DNA from: Candidatus Latescibacterota bacterium
GTDB taxonomy: Bacteria; Latescibacterota; UBA2968; UBA8231
Assembly: GCA_965221775.1 (NCBI GenBank)
Contig: CBDCSU010000005.1
Span: forward strand, 1,248,001 to 1,312,000
Direction: 5' to 3'
Length of the DNA: 64,000 nt
The notes under the pieces are model-generated. The model was not told the DNA's origin, searched no databases, and was given only the letters and a program-made list of their open reading frames with translations. A program made the position numbers and the translations under genes. Shown in pieces: positions 1 to 7,080 of the stretch (position 1 is the first letter of the stretch; each line of letters begins with the position of its first letter).

Positions 1-786
1 GAGGTCGTGACTCGCCAGCGGCACCAGCTCCGCCTCCTTGGCCGCCTGCACCCGGCGGCGCAGTTCAGCACACCTCTCCAAGTCGGCGACAGGATCAAGC
101 CTGAAGGGTTCAGCGTCGCTGTCGGTGGGGGTCGCCGACATCTCAACCAGGCCGTAGCGTTCAGGCGGCCCCCAGCACCGCAAGGCTCCTACCTGCGCCA
201 GTGTCTCTGCGAAGGGAAGGCCTGGATGGAGTTCGTCAAGGATCACCAGACAGTCGTTGCCTGCAAGGCCCGCGTGAATCGGCCACATTGTCGGCTTCAC
301 GCCCTGGCCACGGAAGAGCAAGCGGGAGCCGAACTGATCCACGGTGGAGACAGCCACCCATGGTTGATCCGGGCGGTGACTCCACTCGTCCACGGGAACG
401 CCGCCCCGCAAGGCGGCGCATCCCAACGGTTCTCCCGGGCTCAAGGTTTCAAGCCGTTGTCTCACTCTTCGCAGGATCGGCGTGTCGCCTGCCTCTATGC
501 GGTCGAGGATCCGTAGCGCCCGCTTGCATGCCTGATGGACGACGACGCGTCTGTCCACGACGAAGACGATTCGCCGTGGCGCATCTGCGGGCCTGAGGGC
601 AAGGGCAAAGACGGCCACATCGAGCACGGCGGTCTTCCCGGAGCCGGTGGGCAGGTCGATCACCTTCGGCCACTCTCCGCTCTCGAGGACCTGACTCGCC
701 AGACGTTGCTGCCAGGGGAAGGGACTCTGACCGTGCACGTCCTGGAAGAAGAACGGAAAGTGGCCGGGCAGGAGGTCTTCACTCAT
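1..786 (-). CDS. cas3: Type I-G CRISPR-associated helicase Cas3, N-terminal part (runs off window start)
   Basis: Not in the ORF track. Manual translation from ATG 786 (ATGA overlap with csb2 stop) gives MSEDLLPGHFPFFFQDVHGQSPFPWQQRL...LPTGSGKT (Walker A)...PRRIVFVVDRRVVV...STVDQFGSRLLFRG...LVILDELH, typical of I-G Cas3. Confidence 0.93.
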   Translation of the reverse strand, partial: MSEDLLPGHFPFFFQDVHGQSPFPWQQRLASQVLESGEWPKVIDLPTGSGKTAVLDVAVFALALRPADAPRRIVFVVDRRVVVHQACKRALRILDRIEAGDTPILRRVRQRLETLSPGEPLGCAALRGGVPVDEWSHRPDQPWVAVSTVDQFGSRLLFRGQGVKPTMWPIHAGLAGNDCLVILDELHPGLPFAETLAQVGALRCWGPPERYGLVEMSATPTDSDAEPFRLDPVADLERCAELRRRVQAAKEAELVPLASHDL

Positions 787-2318
787 CGAGACTCCGGCAC
801 TGGGCGCATCAGTCCCAGCCCCATGAATCGACCGGCCCCGAGCATCAGTGGCCCCTCTACGGGGTGCTTGAATGTCACCGCTGCGTGAACGAGCTGGCGT
901 CTGACCAGTGTGCCCTCCCGCCCTCTCTGGCTGAATGGCGGATAGCGCCCGGCCGGCGTGGACCCCGCGATGAACGGGCTCAGCGCAATCTCCACTGCCG
1001 AGGGTTCCGGCAATCCGACGTGCACGCAGGCGGCTGCGACGGCCCCCTCGGCCAGTCTCCAGGCCTCGGCTCGCGCACCGACCCTCCCCGCCCTCAGGCT
1101 GCCAGGATGTCTTGGCAGCGCAATGGGCGTCGCCGACACCCACCGCCGGGAAGGACGATGCCAGGCACTTGGCCGCAGGTCGGCCGCGTCGGGAGGCCCG
1201 CGGTGGCGGTCCATGCGGAGTACGCCCTGAGATCCCAGAGTGAGCCTGAGGGGATAGGGCTGCTGGGGAGCCCCCTGCTCCCACCTGCGGACCGCCCGGA
1301 AAAGGGCCCGGCGCGTGTCGTCTCCCAGGGATCTCGGCACGGACAGGGCGATACCGAGCAGACGCGCGTCCCCGCGCTCAGAGCCGATGTTCGGCAGAGG
1401 AAGGAACGCCACATGGGGGTCGCAGGTCGGCTTGCCATCCGGCCTGTGGCCGCTCAGCTCTTCGGGAATCGGATCCTCGGCGTGCTTGAGAGTGGCTCTT
1501 CGCATGGCCGCCGCAGAATCCACTGCTCGTGTAGCTGGAAGGAAGCGGCAGTTCTGCGCGAATGCGAAGACGATCCATTCGCCAAGAGTGTTGGGCTGCA
1601 AGGTTGGCTCATCCTGCACGGTCTCCGCTGTGGAACTGTATCGAACGTCCGTGTATGGCAGGGCTCGGGGCCTGACGCCCTGGTGTCGGAGATACTGCCG
1701 TTGGAGCGCTCCAAGTTGGCCCCGCCTTACAGCGCGCAGGCCATCTGTACCGCGGCCTGGCGTGTAACTGGCGCGAATAGACTCCCGCACCACACGGCAG
1801 GAAACGAGGGAAGAGGAGTGGCCCAGCCGGGCAACTCGGCTGAGAAGGTGGTCCATGGTCTCGCCCATGCCTCCTGGAGCAGCCTCTTCCCAGAGATATG
1901 TAGCCCGGGGCCGGCGGGGAGTCACGGACGGGAAGAACCGCTCCTGGGGGAGAAAGTTCCTGTCCTGTTTGTCCCTGCTGTCTCTTGGCTCAGTCCGATG
2001 GTCCGGGAGTATGCGCATCGATGAAGAGGGGTTCGAGTCGATGATGCGAACATCGTTCACCGGAACGAAATGCGAGACTACCCTGCGCGGCGCGGCTTCC
2101 GACGCGGCGATGGCGGGTGCTCCCTGGGCCTCGAGCCATTCCAGGGCATCGCGTTCCTCGGGATCGCGACCATCCTCGGCCCAGACCGCCACGAGTGCAG
2201 AGAACACACGCGCCGGGTGCGGTGGCCACTCCCCCCGCCGGCGGTCGTTGTGGAACGTGGCCACGTACCGCTCCGTCAGGAAGTTCACTTCGATGCCGAA
2301 ATTCGCCAAGCGAGACAT
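783..2318 (-). CDS. csb2: Type I-G Csb2 (Cas5/Cas6 fusion)
   Basis: N-terminal EWPPHPARVFSALVA motif, WVSATP motif, C-terminal Gly-rich Cas6 loop GPLMLGAGRFMGLG; lies between csb1 and cas3. Confidence 0.93.
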   Translation of the reverse strand: MSRLANFGIEVNFLTERYVATFHNDRRRGEWPPHPARVFSALVAVWAEDGRDPEERDALEWLEAQGAPAIAASEAAPRRVVSHFVPVNDVRIIDSNPSSSMRILPDHRTEPRDSRDKQDRNFLPQERFFPSVTPRRPRATYLWEEAAPGGMGETMDHLLSRVARLGHSSSLVSCRVVRESIRASYTPGRGTDGLRAVRRGQLGALQRQYLRHQGVRPRALPYTDVRYSSTAETVQDEPTLQPNTLGEWIVFAFAQNCRFLPATRAVDSAAAMRRATLKHAEDPIPEELSGHRPDGKPTCDPHVAFLPLPNIGSERGDARLLGIALSVPRSLGDDTRRALFRAVRRWEQGAPQQPYPLRLTLGSQGVLRMDRHRGPPDAADLRPSAWHRPSRRWVSATPIALPRHPGSLRAGRVGARAEAWRLAEGAVAAACVHVGLPEPSAVEIALSPFIAGSTPAGRYPPFSQRGREGTLVRRQLVHAAVTFKHPVEGPLMLGAGRFMGLGLMRPVPESR

Positions 2319-2323
2319 GCTGC

Positions 2324-3577
2324 CTACTCAGGGGAATGTTCGGTGGCCGACAACTTTCTGCTGCGGAGAATCAGTTCGATCAGCTTTGGTGCTGGTGTCA
2401 GGCGAAGGCCACCGGTTTCCCAACCGATTCCGACCGCTTCCGCGCGCTCGGCAGCAGAAGACAGGACTTCGGCAGCCATGCTCTTGTCCAACTGGACGAC
2501 CTCGCTGGCAGAGCCGTCGCGGGAGAGCATGCTGGCCCGTAGCGGGTGGGTTGGAAGGAGGAGACATCGTGACCGCAGGTCGAAGTCCTTCTCGTACTGA
2601 TAGGCAATGGCAGCGACGCCCAATGCTGCAACCGCGGTGCGGGCCGCTGTCTCTGCTTCGCTGTCGAACCCCTTGAACCTCAGGCGGCGAAGTGCCGCGA
2701 AAGAGATAACGGTGGTCTGCCGGGCCTTCGAGATCGTGACGCCGCCAGCCTCGGCGTCTATGGAAGGAACGATGTTCCCGTGGTTGATCTTTGACGGCTG
2801 ACCAGCCTCCCCGCTCATGCTGCCCCGCGAAGCGTATACAGGGTTCCCCTTCTTGTCCTTCTCCGCTGCCTCCGGGTCGTGAGTCCAGACCTCGGCCGGA
2901 TCCTCGCTGTTGAGCACGCGATCCTCCGGCGCAACCCTTTCGATCTGGAGTGGGTCTATGCGGCTTCCCACCTTCTTCCCCACAGCGGCGTCGAAACCGA
3001 CGATTTCCGATACATAGGCGCGTTGGAAACGCGGGCCGAGTCCGCCTTTCGGGCCCGTCGAATCCCACATACCGAACAACAGGGAGGTCGGCGAGTACCG
3101 GAACAGATCGGTAGCATTGCGCGGGGTTGCGTCGGTAATCGCTTGTCCCACATCCGACAGTCGAAACAGCGTTCCGCCGAACAGGCTGTCCCGGAAAATC
3201 GCATCTGCCAGGCGATGCGGCGCTTCGAGGACGGTGACCTTGTCATAGTCCGTTGCGTTCCCGGTCCCAGAGAAGTCCACGTACGGGACCGGGAAGGAGA
3301 GTTCCTCTCGCTCCCACCCCTCCAACAGGGCCAGCTCCGCCCTGTTGGCTTGTGACGCCACGGAGTCCAGCAGGACCGTAATGCTCGTCCTCTCCCCTTG
3401 TCCAACTTGACGCTCCTCAATGGCGTACCGGTGCTCGAGGCGTCCCTCCACCCTGTAAGATGGGGGGAAGACCTTGTCTCCCTCGCCACCAGCAGGCTGC
3501 AATGTCATGCGGGACCGCAAGGCCACCGCGCCGCCGGCGACAGCATCAAACAGGCGATCGAATGTGAGTCGCGACAC
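2324..3577 (-). CDS. csb1: Type I-G Csb1 (Cas7 backbone subunit)
   Basis: Motifs LQPAGG..DKVFPPSY, LLDSVASQANRAE, EAPHRLADA, PTSLLFGMWDS, GSRIDPL, DFDLRSRCLL; start re-assigned to GTG 3577, 6 nt after an AGGAGG RBS. Confidence 0.93.
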   Translation of the reverse strand: MSRLTFDRLFDAVAGGAVALRSRMTLQPAGGEGDKVFPPSYRVEGRLEHRYAIEERQVGQGERTSITVLLDSVASQANRAELALLEGWEREELSFPVPYVDFSGTGNATDYDKVTVLEAPHRLADAIFRDSLFGGTLFRLSDVGQAITDATPRNATDLFRYSPTSLLFGMWDSTGPKGGLGPRFQRAYVSEIVGFDAAVGKKVGSRIDPLQIERVAPEDRVLNSEDPAEVWTHDPEAAEKDKKGNPVYASRGSMSGEAGQPSKINHGNIVPSIDAEAGGVTISKARQTTVISFAALRRLRFKGFDSEAETAARTAVAALGVAAIAYQYEKDFDLRSRCLLLPTHPLRASMLSRDGSASEVVQLDKSMAAEVLSSAAERAEAVGIGWETGGLRLTPAPKLIELILRSRKLSATEHSPE

Positions 3578-3609
3578 CCTCAGCCTCCTGAAAAAGGCTG
3601 TGTGCGGCT

Positions 3610-4110
3610 TCAGGGAGGGCAGGCGCTGGGCGCGCGCCTCCGGGCGCAGGTGTGTGTACTCGCCACTGGAGTGCCCAGCTCCGCCTTTTCCTCGGGTGCA
3701 ATGCTGGCCCGAGCTTTGGCCAGTTGCCGCTTGATGCGTCCCTTCCGGCCTGCCTCCAGGGACCTCGTGCGCTTTTCCGCGCAGACGAGGCATCGCCGGG
3801 CCGCCGGTCCCCTGTGCTCGATAGAGACCCCGCAATCCGCACACTCCCGGCGGCGTCGGCCGAGGGCCAGGGCTCGGATCGTCTCGCGCACGAGACTACG
3901 GACGCGCACCGGCGAGATTCCGTGCCTTGCGGCGATGGCGTCGACTCGGAGCTCCTCCCCCTTGAGGCCGTAGTACTCCGAGAGGATCTGCCGCGCGCGC
4001 TCCGGCAGACCCGCGATCAGATCGAGCGCCCAGGAGCGGATCTCGGCATCGGGTACTCCCTCGTGAAACTGGCTCCACAGGAGTATGCGCAGGGAACGGT
4101 GATGGTTCAC
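3610..4110 (-). CDS. Small sigma-70 region-4-like HTH protein with C-terminal CxxC...CxxC zinc finger
   Basis: LPERARQILSEYYGLKGEELRVDAIAARHGISPVRVRSL resembles the sigma region 4 HTH; CADC...CLVC follows; AAGGAGG RBS 9 nt before GTG; ends 32 nt before csb1. Confidence 0.7.
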   Translation of the reverse strand: MNHHRSLRILLWSQFHEGVPDAEIRSWALDLIAGLPERARQILSEYYGLKGEELRVDAIAARHGISPVRVRSLVRETIRALALGRRRRECADCGVSIEHRGPAARRCLVCAEKRTRSLEAGRKGRIKRQLAKARASIAPEEKAELGTPVASTHTCARRRAPSACPP

Positions 4111-4236
4111 TTCACTTCGCCTCCTTCTGTTTCGTGGCAGAGCCTTCAGCCTCGAGAGAATTCCCCTATCAGCTGGCCGAGACTGCGTGCTTCGATTCCA
4201 GGCGCGTGGGATGGTATGGAAGGCCTGCCTCGAAGA

Positions 4237-4259
4237 GTGATTGATAACACGCTTATACC
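4237..4259. promoter_or_regulatory. Palindromic box 1 (GTGATTGATAACAC) with adjacent minus-strand TATAAG -10-like element
   Basis: The 20-mer ATTGATAACACGCTTATACC (4240-4259) recurs exactly at 4453-4472. Confidence 0.55.
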
Positions 4260-4302
4260 TTCAGAGCTGTCCACAACGATCCTGGTCCCTGAGTTTGAAG
4301 TC

Positions 4303-4388
4303 GGGACAGCAACCCCTCATGCCCGAGTAGCCCACCCGATTCGGGAGGCCGCCCTGTCGGGCAGGAGCCCGGGAGGGGTTGCTGTCCC
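4303..4388. ncRNA. Structured stem-loop element copy 1 (candidate RNA)
   Basis: Perfect 16-bp inverted repeat GGGACAGCAACCCCTC (4303-4318) / GAGGGGTTGCTGTCCC (4373-4388); inner stem TGCCCGA/TCGGGCA (4320-4326/4357-4363). Confidence 0.55.
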
Positions 4389-4449
4389 TTCGAGACGCAC
4401 ACACACAGACACATAACTCACGCAAAGTGGACACTTTCAAGGTTTTTCA

Positions 4450-4472
4450 TTTATTGATAACACGCTTATACC
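4450..4472. promoter_or_regulatory. Palindromic box 2 / repeat copy with TG-n-TATAAG extended -10-like element on the minus strand
   Basis: 4453-4472 is an exact 20-bp copy of 4240-4259. Confidence 0.55.
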
Positions 4473-4617
4473 ATTCATGCTGGCACCTGGCCAGTCAGGA
4501 GACCAGAAGGGCTCGATGCTCGACTCTGCAAACTGTACATAGGGCCGATTGTGAACCATTGCAAGAGCAGGACCCACGAGCGTGATCCCCTTGTATCGAT
4601 CCTCCTTTGAACGAATC

Positions 4618-4708
4618 GGGATAGCAGCCCCTCACTCCTACAGGAACCTCCCGGAGGAGGGACCGAGAGACCCTACTGGGTTTTGAGCCCGTGAGGGGTT
4701 GCTATCCC
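4618..4708. ncRNA. Structured stem-loop element copy 2 (candidate RNA)
   Basis: 18-bp stem GGGATAGCAGCCCCTCAC (4618-4635) / GTGAGGGGTTGCTATCCC (4691-4708) with one G-U pair; compensatory C:G to T:A change versus copy 1. Confidence 0.55.
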
Positions 4709-4797
4709 TCTCATCGCTACGATAGCAATTGCTGTGGGAGGTATGCAACTAACAATTACCCAGAGAGCGGCCATTGATTGCAGGTGGGCTTCGGAGA

Positions 4798-4811
4798 GTG
4801 TTTGATAACAC
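4798..4811. promoter_or_regulatory. Palindromic box 3 GTGTT-TGAT-AACAC
   Basis: Perfect 5-bp arms; 4792-4811 matches 4231-4250 at 18/20. Confidence 0.5.
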
Positions 4812-5024
4812 AATTGGTGAATTGCTACCTGTGGGTTCATCTTTTGGGGTGTGAGCGTGTGCTCAAGGACTTTTCCGCCTGGGCCTTGCGCGCTCGGCGT
4901 ACTGAGACCGGGCGACCCGGACCGCTGCCGAGATGGCATCCCGAGTCGGCGGAATCTCTCTGATGGGGAAAAACCTGCGAGAGACGCCCATCCACCGGGG
5001 ATGGCGAGGGGCGCCGGCCGGCCC

Positions 5025-6983
5025 TCAGCCCGGGCGGTACTCCAGCACCACCCGGTTCTCCGGCCCCCGCAGGCCCATGGTGTTCACCGCCCGCGCCCGC
5101 AGGCGGTTGCGCCCCGGGCGCAGCTCCCACTCGAAGACGGGACCGCTCGCCTCCCACTTCCCCCGGTCCAGGCTGACCTCGAAGCGGTCCAGGTGGGGGA
5201 TGGGGCCGGAGAGCCGCACCGTCAGCGCCGCCGCCGTCTCCGTGTCCTGCAGGTCGATCCGCGTGCGGTTCAGGTCCCAGTAGAAGTCCTCGGGCCGGTT
5301 GGTCTGCAGCGAGTACTCGGGATACCTCGGGTCGAGGCTGTCCGTCCACCACAAGTGGCCGTCCCAGTGGTACTGGTCCATCCCCTGCTCCAGCTCCTGC
5401 GGCTCGGGGCGGTAGAGGTGGTCGTTGCGCAACGGCATGCCGAAGCGCTGGTAGAGCTGAGCGAACATCGTCCGGAGCCGCTCGTCGGGGACGGGCGGCG
5501 GCGGCACGAACTCCAGGTCCTCCATCCGGCCGGCGGCGCCGAGGCGGTGCATCTCCAAGGCGTTGATCGGCACGCCGGCCTCCTCGTACTGGAAGGCGAC
5601 CTCGTGGCCGGGCAGGAGGCCCGGGTCCTGGAGGATCCACTTGCCGTGCTCGTCGGACCAGATCTCCGCCAGGCAGTGGTGGTCGACGATCACGGGCCGG
5701 GCGTGGTAGCCGAGGGAGCCGGCGCACTGGCTGAAGACGGCGGCGTAGTGGGTGCACATGCCCAGGGCCAGGTTCTGCGGCGCCAGCTCCAGGATCTCGA
5801 GGGCGTCCCACTGGGGGCAGTAGTTGTACTCGTTGTCGTTCCACCCCTCCCACTGCCGGCGGACCCACTGGCGCAGCAGGGCGAACCTCTCCATCTCGGT
5901 CTGCCCGGGGGCCACGACCTCCTCCAGGCGGTACTTCTCGCGCAGGTGGCGCATGCGCGGGTGGTGCGGGTCGGCGTAGTCGAAGGGGTAGGAGGAGACG
6001 GCCAGGTCGTTCTCCGGCGCCGAGATCACCTCGATCCGGCGGCGGTTCGCCCCGACGGCGCGCCCGGAGGCCTCGATGGTGACGCTCTTCAACAGCGGCG
6101 TGACGGCGGGATCGCCGCTGGAGAGGGTTGCCCGCCATTGCAAGAACCGCGCCCCGGGCAAGGGCTCCCCCGAATCGGCGGCGCGCCAGGAGGTCCACTC
6201 GTCCGAAGCGTACAACGCCGTCGAGCCGGATCTCACCTCGAAGCGCACCGAGGTCCTCGGCGGCATTTCGGTAGCGGCCGACAGGCGCAGGGCCTTCAGG
6301 TCAAGGCCGGGAGCGACCGCCTCCTCCGCGGCCAGGTCGATGACAGGAGAGGTGGCCACACCCTCCCGCGGATGGCCGCGGACCCTCAGGCGGACGACGT
6401 ATTCCCCCGAGAGGTCGTTGTCCGCTCCGAGCATGTCCCCCTTCCACTCGCCGCGGCCCTCGAGGCGCTTGAAGCTGTTGCGGCCGGGCTCGTCGGCGTC
6501 GATGACCAGCGACCCGGCGCCGGAGAAGACCAGCTCGTTGCGGCCCGGGCGCAGCCAGCGGCCGGGGATCGTCTCACGGTCCCAGCCGCCGGTGAGCATC
6601 CTCTCGAGGTCCTGCACGTGGCGGATCTCGTGCCCGTTGACCGAGATGAGCAGGGGCTCCTCCTCGGTGCCGCCGCCCCCGTGGAACAGGACCTCCGCCG
6701 ACTCCACCGCCGCCGGCAGGTCGAAGAGCTTCTTCGCCTCCACGGCGGGCGTCAGGCTCTCACGGATCTTGGAGCTGCGCGCCATGGCGTCGGCGATCAG
6801 CCACGTCGGCGCCAGGCAGAGCCCGCCCTCGTCGGCGCAGTAGCCGGTGAAGCGGTCGCGGGTGCAGCCGGCGAGGGCTTCGCCTTCGAGGGTGGTCTTC
6901 CACTCGGTCATGGGTGGTGCGGCGGAGGTGGTGCCGGCGGACACCAGCAGCGCGGCCAGGGCGAGGCGGGCGAGGCGGGGCAC
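5025..6983 (-). CDS. Secreted transglutaminase-like domain protein
   Basis: Signal peptide after GTG 6983 (AAGGAGG RBS); Cys-His-Asp-like triad GMCTHYA...HHCLAEIW...WILQDP. Confidence 0.7.
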   Translation of the reverse strand: MPRLARLALAALLVSAGTTSAAPPMTEWKTTLEGEALAGCTRDRFTGYCADEGGLCLAPTWLIADAMARSSKIRESLTPAVEAKKLFDLPAAVESAEVLFHGGGGTEEEPLLISVNGHEIRHVQDLERMLTGGWDRETIPGRWLRPGRNELVFSGAGSLVIDADEPGRNSFKRLEGRGEWKGDMLGADNDLSGEYVVRLRVRGHPREGVATSPVIDLAAEEAVAPGLDLKALRLSAATEMPPRTSVRFEVRSGSTALYASDEWTSWRAADSGEPLPGARFLQWRATLSSGDPAVTPLLKSVTIEASGRAVGANRRRIEVISAPENDLAVSSYPFDYADPHHPRMRHLREKYRLEEVVAPGQTEMERFALLRQWVRRQWEGWNDNEYNYCPQWDALEILELAPQNLALGMCTHYAAVFSQCAGSLGYHARPVIVDHHCLAEIWSDEHGKWILQDPGLLPGHEVAFQYEEAGVPINALEMHRLGAAGRMEDLEFVPPPPVPDERLRTMFAQLYQRFGMPLRNDHLYRPEPQELEQGMDQYHWDGHLWWTDSLDPRYPEYSLQTNRPEDFYWDLNRTRIDLQDTETAAALTVRLSGPIPHLDRFEVSLDRGKWEASGPVFEWELRPGRNRLRARAVNTMGLRGPENRVVLEYRPG

Positions 6984-7080
6984 CCGCGGGCCTCCTTCGC
7001 TATCGAGATACTCGCGCCGCCGAGAATCGCGCATGAGGGCTCGCCGTTTCATGTGTCGCGTTGTGCCGCTGCCATCCGGG

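Follow-up and report, generated by a model that had tools for sequence, protein, structure and literature searches.

Does a type I-G Cas operon that opens with an orphan regulator-like gene and a block of boxes and hairpins constitute a new RNA-guided module, or is it an ordinary cassette with an unusual head? We address this question in a 64,000-nucleotide (nt) stretch of the genome of a Candidatus Latescibacterota bacterium (assembly GCA_965221775.1, contig CBDCSU010000005.1, positions 1,248,001 to 1,312,000), hereafter the window, numbered from its first base. An original prediction, made from the letters of this stretch, had seen csb1, csb2 and cas3 behind a gene resembling sigma factor region 4 and a non-coding block, and had proposed that the hairpins of that block may be non-canonical guide or decoy RNAs, or that the sigma4-like protein may run a dedicated regulatory circuit. 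Our analysis partly supports this interpretation. The cas part is an interference-only type I-G system of a short-Cas8g variant, which owns a small repeat-spacer array and lies in an island at a hotspot. For the operon head, the four boxes present there are most economically explained by a local, island-specific circuit that the sigma4-like protein would run.

A type I-G cassette with its own array

Gene identities were assigned by Pfam, NCBIfam and PADLOC profile scans, and the predicted csb1-csb2-cas3 set on the minus strand is confirmed by Pfam and NCBIfam (Table 1). Full-length Cas3g matches TIGR02621 over residues 10-899 (3.9e-213) and the Pfam models Cas3_HD (residues 728-833) and HD; its helicase is N-terminal and its HD nuclease C-terminal, as type I-G requires. 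The C-terminal Cas6-type glycine-rich loop of Csb2 (G489...P506), already described as intact, is invariant across 7 aligned homologues. The called csb1 frame spans 2324..3844(-), and alignment with relatives, whose proteins begin MPQLTFDRL, places the true start at the GTG at 3577, with AGGAGG 7 nt upstream. The sigma4-like open reading frame (ORF), csb1, csb2 and cas3g read as one operon, because the gaps in this four-gene minus-strand set are short (32 nt from the ORF stop to the csb1 start) and a Shine-Dalgarno sequence precedes each gene.

The flanking contig, which had been named as the place to look, holds both a large subunit and an array beyond window base 1 (positions there are given in L001 coordinates). 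The large subunit is a short Cas8g, whose NCBIfam model NF049934 is labelled 'type I-G CRISPR-associated protein, Cas3-extension family'; it matches neither Pfam families nor Csx17 models. Going by that name, Cas3 and short Cas8g may be fused in other genomes. At this locus the cas3 frame overruns the short cas8g start codon by 89 nt (L001 7976-8064); the two genes abut in relatives.

Starting 5 nt past the short cas8g stop codon, and about 2.9 kb left of window base 1 (L001 6878-7133), a CRISPR array of 4 repeats and 3 spacers lies on the same strand as the cas genes. Its repeats, 35-37 nt long, are slightly different from each other and all keep the stem and end CCTCAYTGAAGC; the periods are 70-76 nt and the spacers 38, 35 and 39 nt. 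The repeat hairpin has a 6-7 bp stem and a 7-8-nt loop, and is followed by a 4-nt linker and an 8-nt handle (AYTGAAGC). These four repeats are the sole significant repeat matches genome-wide. The array came to light by reading the island junction: a k-mer array scan of the genome returned only leucine-rich-repeat (LRR) gene and tandem repeats, and overlooked the array because its four repeats are non-identical. The main text of PMC9638904 places the cut of type I-G Csb2 4 nt 3' of the hairpin in the repeat, with an 8-nt handle as the result; our comparison with that system concerns the layout described there, not the repeat sequences. By that layout and the published type I-G work, Csb2 would here cut 4 nt past the repeat hairpin and leave the AYTGAAGC handle, and guides would come from the four-repeat array in the ordinary way, in the gene order sigma4/Zn-ribbon ORF, csb1, csb2, cas3g, short Cas8g, array.

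The statement that no array and no cas1, cas2 or cas4 lies on this side thus holds within the window, and for the adaptation genes across the genome, but not for the array, which sits just beyond base 1. An operon without a normal guide source does not exist here. The 'Cas operon without array' was a window-edge effect, and the case for a new RNA-guided module therefore falls away.

Profiles of Cas1, Cas2 and Cas4 (PF01867, PF09827, PF01930) gave 0 matches across the genome (5.36 Mb in 6 contigs, 96.8% complete); the system is therefore limited to interference, and its array is static. None of the 3 spacers matches its own genome at up to 10 mismatches. Against phage and plasmid collections they returned nothing significant (best E-values 0.06-0.8; IMG/VR was not searched with the spacers), and the sole stronger match was a repeat-level one to another array. 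A contig from run X8 carries 210 additional letters exactly at the distal array junction (L001 6855/6856, ~3.1 kb left of base 1), about three repeat-spacer units' worth, which suggests that this strain has a longer array and that array length differs between strains.

With the short Cas8g as query, we obtained 8 related loci from metagenome-assembled genomes (MAGs; L014-L021), labelled Latescibacterota (3), unclassified bacterium, Pseudomonadales, Nitrosopumilaceae, Acidimicrobiales and Spongiisociaceae. The order csb1-csb2-cas3-cas8g is the same in 7 of them, and L016 retains only part of cas3 together with cas8g. Identities to these relatives are 61-83% for Csb1, 46-64% for Csb2, 48-68% for Cas3 and 50-78% for the short Cas8g. 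Normal arrays with 36-nt repeats are present in five of the eight loci, reaching up to ~136 repeats; in four of these five the repeats end CTCATTGAAGC, and the L017 repeat is close to the repeats of our locus. In three loci, cas4-cas1 and cas2 separate cas8g from the array. Two Latescibacterota MAGs (L014 13540-19778 and L015 15111-20473) have, a few kb downstream of the related cassette, a second and more distant I-G-like set of cas3, csb1 and csb2 that is 26-44% identical. The locus labelled as a Nitrosopumilaceae archaeon (L019) has a cassette 46-62% identical to ours and a ~136-repeat array, in opposite orientation, from ~100 nt past cas8g; the presence of this cassette on an archaeal-labelled contig reflects either cross-domain transfer or a binning error.

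The locus is a horizontally acquired type I-G cassette at a hotspot. The insert measures ~8.1 kb, from ~3.1 kb left of base 1 (22 nt past the last repeat) to window ~4929, and separates a DUF6785 gene, on the left of the island and array, from the transglutaminase-like gene. This gap is variable in the genus (window ~4929-5024 to L001 ~6700-6856; loci L032-L035). The site is empty in the same-genus genomes G002 and G004, where the transglutaminase-like stop lies ~20 nt from the DUF6785 gene start; it holds 0.35 kb, including a soxR 3' fragment, in G006, and 1.2 kb of other cargo with two small minus-strand low-GC ORFs (165 and 93 aa) in G007. Both joins look illegitimate rather than like att sites, the left one falling 22 nt after the last repeat and the right one within a soxR fragment, and no integrase or transposase gene was found within the island. 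A partial duplicate of the 3' end of soxR, a neighbouring gene, lies at the right junction (window 4930-5010; L001 ~4594-4760), and G006 and G007 carry the same fragment here. GC content at third codon positions (GC3) is 0.71-0.78 in all five island genes versus 0.86-0.95 in three host genes (both flanks and soxR). The sigma4-like ORF, at 0.78, is in line with the island genes, which assigns the ORF and its block to the insert and not to the host.

A 2-kb stretch of the island was listed in 20 runs drawn from 10 studies; in 12 of these runs at least half of the sampled words were present, and the labelled runs are mostly sponge metagenomes. The locus illustrates cleanly how a compact, interference-only type I-G cassette, with a short Cas8g and a static three-spacer array, travels as hotspot cargo; the island sequence is found again in sponge metagenome runs of several studies, and relatives of its cassette span several phyla.

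The operon head: an orphan protein, four boxes and two hairpins

The first gene of the operon was correctly recognized as sigma-region-4-like: the match to Sigma70_r4 is confirmed. The protein combines a sigma-70 region-4-type helix-turn-helix (residues ~28-90) with a single Zn-ribbon module (CxxC-14-CxxC) and has a basic tail. The lack of region 2 means that it is not a sigma factor: Pfam and NCBIfam scans found Sigma70_r4 only, and the NCBIfam sigma70-ECF (extracytoplasmic function) model aligns with it over positions 105-161 of its 165 and scores 27.8 bits against a cut-off of 42.9. It is best called a small, predicted two-module DNA-binding protein.

The protein is also an orphan. A word-indexed protein search over 946 candidates returned only the protein itself, and a HMMER scan of 1.84 billion representative proteins found no full-length relative. 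The scan gave 26 matches, each of them partial and to a protein with tandem region-4 domains or to a Zn-ribbon/HNH protein. Region-4 domains align with the N-terminal part, and the C-terminal module aligns with a Zn-ribbon unit (by eye, roughly RxCxDCGxxIxxRGxxAxRCxxCA) that is repeated several times in proteins often bearing HNH endonuclease domains. None of the 9 other same-genus genomes gave a match to the ORF, it was not found in five related-locus genomes, and a comparison with 40 relatives turned up only weak region-4 matches, in frames of ordinary sigma size.

Upstream of the ORF, positions 4111-5024 contain no convincing reading frame. The island part of this block, ~0.82 kb, confirms the predicted non-coding region with two hairpins and three direct boxes, to which we add a fourth, inverted box (Table 1). 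Block GC is 0.54-0.58, versus 0.61-0.73 in the cas genes and ~0.70 in the flanks. The boxes and hairpins are not chance occurrences, because all their genomic copies are confined to the block. All 3 genomic copies of the 10-nt box core lie there; a search with the 28-mer box at up to 8 mismatches gave 3 matches genome-wide, all in the block and box 4 among them; and every box copy in 5.36 Mb sits within ~650 nt directly upstream of the ORF. Likewise, these two are the only paired-arm hairpins of their kind in the genome. They have a common stem arm sequence and unrelated loops. Relative to hairpin 1, the hairpin 2 stem has one compensatory change (C-G to T-A) and a second change, A-to-G, that gives G-U on the plus strand and A.C on the minus strand. 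Their predicted folds reach z-scores of -4.9 to -6.0, which 0 of 200 shuffles equal on either strand; hairpin 1 folds at -59 to -62 kcal/mol, with z about -5.

These elements are private to the island. There are 0 tRNA or tmRNA genes in the block and no Rfam family, the sole Rfam match being a below-threshold eukaryotic snoRNA model inside the ORF. Plasmid and phage collections contain no copy of the block, exact-pattern scans of JGI metagenome contigs found 0 paired stems and 0 boxes, and the five related-locus genomes gave one trivial 36-nt match only. The 16-nt stem arm alone matches more than 120 IMG/VR contigs, and all 80 that were retrieved (L036-L115) contain one conserved element. This element, ~30 nt long (…CAGAACTTTTAGAGGGGTTGCTATCCCT…), lies between a TATTTATT motif and the start of a phage gene, and has 17 nt in common with the hairpin 2 3' arm. 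A partner arm within 130 nt is present in 0 of 80, and 3 checked copies have no Rfam match; we judged this a chance match to one family. Integron attC sites, invertible switches, IS200/IS605 ends and retron non-coding RNA were considered and dropped, since the island has no recombinase, transposase or reverse transcriptase gene and their geometry does not match.

Within the species, the block is conserved. A contig of 19,975 nt from run X5 covers the whole island at ~99.3% identity, with 44 substitutions and 16 gap positions. Among the 40 of 44 substitutions listed, those in the block fall at 4205, 4532, 4583 and 4777; its indels are a tandem duplication of 10 nt after 4521, an insertion of 4 nt after 4772 and the loss of 1 nt at 4915. 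None of the listed differences falls in either hairpin or in any box core. The stretch between box 2 and hairpin 2 (4512-4559) is indel-prone, with the 10-nt duplication in X5 and a 6-nt insertion in an RNA-library contig of run X20; the flanking elements are unchanged.

Beyond the species, neither the ORF nor the hairpin stem is kept beside the related I-G loci that we examined, as the original prediction would have had it. The ORF is found by tblastn (E <= 1e-3) in 0 of the 8 related loci; the box and stem are absent from these loci, which give scattered matches at 3 or more mismatches only; and a comparable inverted repeat upstream of csb1 occurs in 0 of 7. Homology of the relatives to the window at the DNA level ends at 3569-3590, that is, at the csb1 start, and the upstream regions are unrelated. 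The operon head is therefore a one-off graft, in which a small, predicted DNA-binding protein would have been joined to the head of one cassette. Two of the three outcomes that the prediction itself had named as refuting are thus what we found: features unconserved beside I-G loci, and a normal array past cas3.

Table 1. Positions of the cassette genes, the elements of the operon head and the right island border. Coordinates are those of the window unless L001 is given.
Feature	Position	Strand	Basis and details
Sigma4/Zn-ribbon ORF (orphan), 166 aa, first gene of operon	3610..4110	-	Sigma70_r4 1.1e-8 at residues 32-81; GGAGG 9 nt before GTG start
csb1 (Cas7g), 417 aa	2324..3577	-	PF09617 1.1e-48; TIGR02570 1.2e-18; PADLOC Cas7g 1.4e-44
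csb2 (Cas5-Cas6 fusion, Cas5/6g), 511 aa	783..2318	-	TIGR02165 1.1e-84 over residues 7-507; PADLOC Cas56g 2.7e-116
cas3g, 5' part	1..786	-	Full gene 936 aa, L001 7976..10786, extends ~2.0 kb left of window base 1
Short Cas8g (large subunit), 308 aa	Left of window, after cas3g	Same as cas genes	NF049934 1.1e-84; PADLOC Cas8g 'effector_LS' 2.3e-54
Box 1	4216..4259	+	Core TTGATAACAC at 4241-4250; genome-unique
Hairpin 1	4303..4388	.	16-nt arms 4303-4318/4373-4388, 100% complementary; 54-nt structured loop
Box 2	4445..4472	+	20-mer at 4453 identical to box 1 20-mer at 4240
Hairpin 2	4618..4708	.	18-nt arms 4618-4635/4691-4708, 94% complementary, 55 nt apart
Box 3	4777..4811	+	35 nt, 77% match to 4216-4250; has left half and core of box 1
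Box 4, inverted degenerate copy	4848..4875	-	21/28 positions (75%) complementary to box 1
Right island junction (~4929/4930), then host remnant	4929..5024	.	blastn to G006/G007/G002/G004 and junction reading
Transglutaminase-like gene, host flank	5025..7052	-	PF01841; 85-95% orthologues in 4 same-genus genomes

Readings of the operon head

We propose that the ORF encodes a dedicated DNA-binding regulator, that the boxes are its operators and that the hairpins are leader or insulator structures, the whole being lineage-specific; we regard this as an evenly balanced call. In this proposal the 0.82-kb GC-poor block would serve as the promoter, operator and leader region of the operon. The four boxes of 28-44 nt, three direct and one inverted, would be the likely binding sites through which the ORF protein controls it, and the two long hairpins may be structured elements with a leader or insulator function, at the site where the insert splits a host operon. 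Our data show the gene identities, the array, the borders of the island, and that the block is unique and conserved within the species; we infer that the protein binds the boxes, in which direction and from where the operon is transcribed, and that the hairpins play a part. If so, the orphan sigma4/Zn-ribbon gene with its private boxes would be a candidate dedicated cas regulator.

Several observations weigh against this proposal. The ORF and block occur at no other locus, and conservation lends it no support. A single-sequence AlphaFold prediction for the ORF protein is of poor quality (mean pLDDT 59.6). It is unusual for simple operators to be as long as these boxes (28-44 nt) and as irregularly spaced (213, 348 and ~40 nt), and neither a sigma-70-type promoter nor an intrinsic terminator (0 terminator-like sites) is predicted in 3900-5200. 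The G-U versus A.C asymmetry in the hairpin 2 stem favours an RNA from the plus strand, antisense to the operon, and a leader leaves this asymmetry unexplained. Finally, the inverted outer pair formed by boxes 1 and 4 fits a transposon-like remnant too.

This last point leads to the rival that survives best, which we consider possible although on the unlikely side: the block would be donor-derived passenger DNA, namely a decayed miniature inverted-repeat transposable element (MITE) or an element like a transposon end or a repetitive extragenic palindrome (REP), with no CRISPR role. Boxes 1 and 4, an inverted pair around 588 nt, would be its terminal inverted repeats, boxes 2 and 3 internal copies of a binding site and the hairpins palindromic units, and the sigma4/Zn-ribbon ORF could be a leftover DNA-binding gene of a mobile element. 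Consistent with such an origin, the GC of the block is the lowest in the island, the island borders look like illegitimate joins, the Zn-ribbon module recurs in HNH-endonuclease proteins, and the operon head is missing from all relatives of the cassette. The protein-language-model cluster closest to the ORF is viral (Sigma70_r4, score 0.89), which we take as a lead only. However, the island contains no transposase or integrase, and no further copy of the element turned up in the genome, the five related-locus genomes, the plasmid and phage collections or, as an exact pattern, the JGI contigs. The stems keep pairing through a compensatory change, and a second strain differs from ours between the elements but leaves the elements themselves unchanged, which hints at constraint.

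In another reading, each box-hairpin unit would be a small-RNA gene, with a promoter-like box and a stable ~90-nt hairpin RNA. Such units might form a safeguard or addiction module, or a sensor of the cassette, like CreT/CreA or CreR but differently built; we consider this improbable. Two units with a constant stem, unrelated loops, very stable folds and a compensatory change fit this idea, and a cassette without adaptation genes at a variable hotspot would gain from an addiction module. Mini-arrays that are associated with cas genes and regulate cas or toxin genes have been described, as far as the accessible text of 10.1101/2023.03.10.532045 and 10.1101/2024.10.29.618823 goes. From two metatranscriptome runs we have 5 contigs, all short, unstranded and of low depth, on csb2, csb1, the ORF (3721-4158) and 4433-4638, and the uncovered parts are uninformative; the contig on 4433-4638, from X20, runs from box 2 into hairpin 2. 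Its depth is 2.5, it is unstranded, and DNA can sit in RNA libraries, such that these contigs are a weak hint at most of transcription over csb2, csb1, the ORF and 4433-4638. Against small-RNA genes of the Cre kind, the block holds no repeat-like sequence: alignment scores of the block and hairpins against the repeats of five related arrays lie within those of shuffles. No 10-nt spacer seed with a TTN protospacer-adjacent motif (PAM) is present in the block, and no spacer has a significant match in block or genome (spacer-versus-block scores 8-10; shuffle means 8-9). Nor does the block contain repeat-like units flanking a PAM-matched spacer-like segment, the arrangement of CreR/CreA-type elements. 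The missing promoter, terminator, Rfam and tRNA-like predictions count against it as well.

A combination of protein and RNA has a slim chance in our estimate: the region-4-only/Zn-ribbon protein, the four boxes and two hairpin RNAs might together be a stand-alone module for control or safeguarding that was grafted onto a type I-G cassette without adaptation genes. Were this true, a transcription factor may drive or gate hairpin small RNAs that sense or protect Cascade, and the module would be a protein-plus-RNA counterpart of CreTA/CreR circuits without repeat mimicry.

The hairpins as non-canonical guide or decoy RNAs, processed or bound by the Cas6 domain of Csb2 and loaded into Cascade, are very improbable and find no support in our results: they adjoin the operon, and 8 of 12 bases after hairpin 2 on the plus strand match the repeat linker and handle, but the system owns a canonical array, the 16-18 bp stems and 54-nt loops are unlike the 6-7 bp stem and 7-8-nt loop of the repeats, the stem sequences are unrelated to the repeats, the hairpins are missing from all 7 related loci whose Csb2 is 52-71% identical, and the handle-like match, which we treat as chance, falls to 2 of 12 after hairpin 1 and lies on the strand opposite the array.

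Comparison with known systems

Small RNA elements beside cas genes have precedents to which the block can be compared. As with the CreR/CreA-type degenerate mini-CRISPRs, in the form given by the accessible text of 10.1101/2023.03.10.532045 and 10.1101/2024.10.29.618823, non-canonical RNA elements would here lie by a cas promoter, and the locus has a small array with degenerate repeats. Unlike those mini-CRISPRs, the block is without repeat-like units, and no mini-array spacer matches it by seed and PAM.

For the ORF, the nearest precedent is a type III-B CRISPR-Cas locus of Myxococcus xanthus, which, going by the portions of PMC6061681 and PMC11506125 available to us, is controlled by the ECF sigma factor DdvS and the anti-sigma factor DdvA. 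In both cases a sigma-related gene stands beside a cas operon as a dedicated regulator, a role that is proposed for our ORF. DdvS is a complete ECF sigma factor with an anti-sigma partner, whereas the ORF has region 4 only, joined to a Zn ribbon, and no partner gene.

The cas genes themselves resemble the type I-G system (formerly I-U) of Thioalkalivibrio sulfidiphilus, as the main text of PMC9638904 presents it, in Cas7g/Csb1, the Csb2 Cas5-Cas6 fusion, a Cas3 with C-terminal HD domain, and repeats of ~36 nt in which a hairpin is followed by a 4-nt linker and then the 8-nt 5' handle. They differ from it in their large subunit, which is the 308-aa short form and not the longer Csx17 type, in the order csb1-csb2-cas3-cas8g without cas4-cas1 or cas2, and in an array of three spacers that starts 5 nt after cas8g and in which each repeat is slightly different. 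The closest kin are the cassettes of L014-L021, with the same four genes, in the same order in 7 of 8 loci. The arrays found in these relatives are long, three of the loci have cas4-cas1 and cas2, and the sigma4/Zn-ribbon ORF, the boxes and the hairpins belong to this island only.

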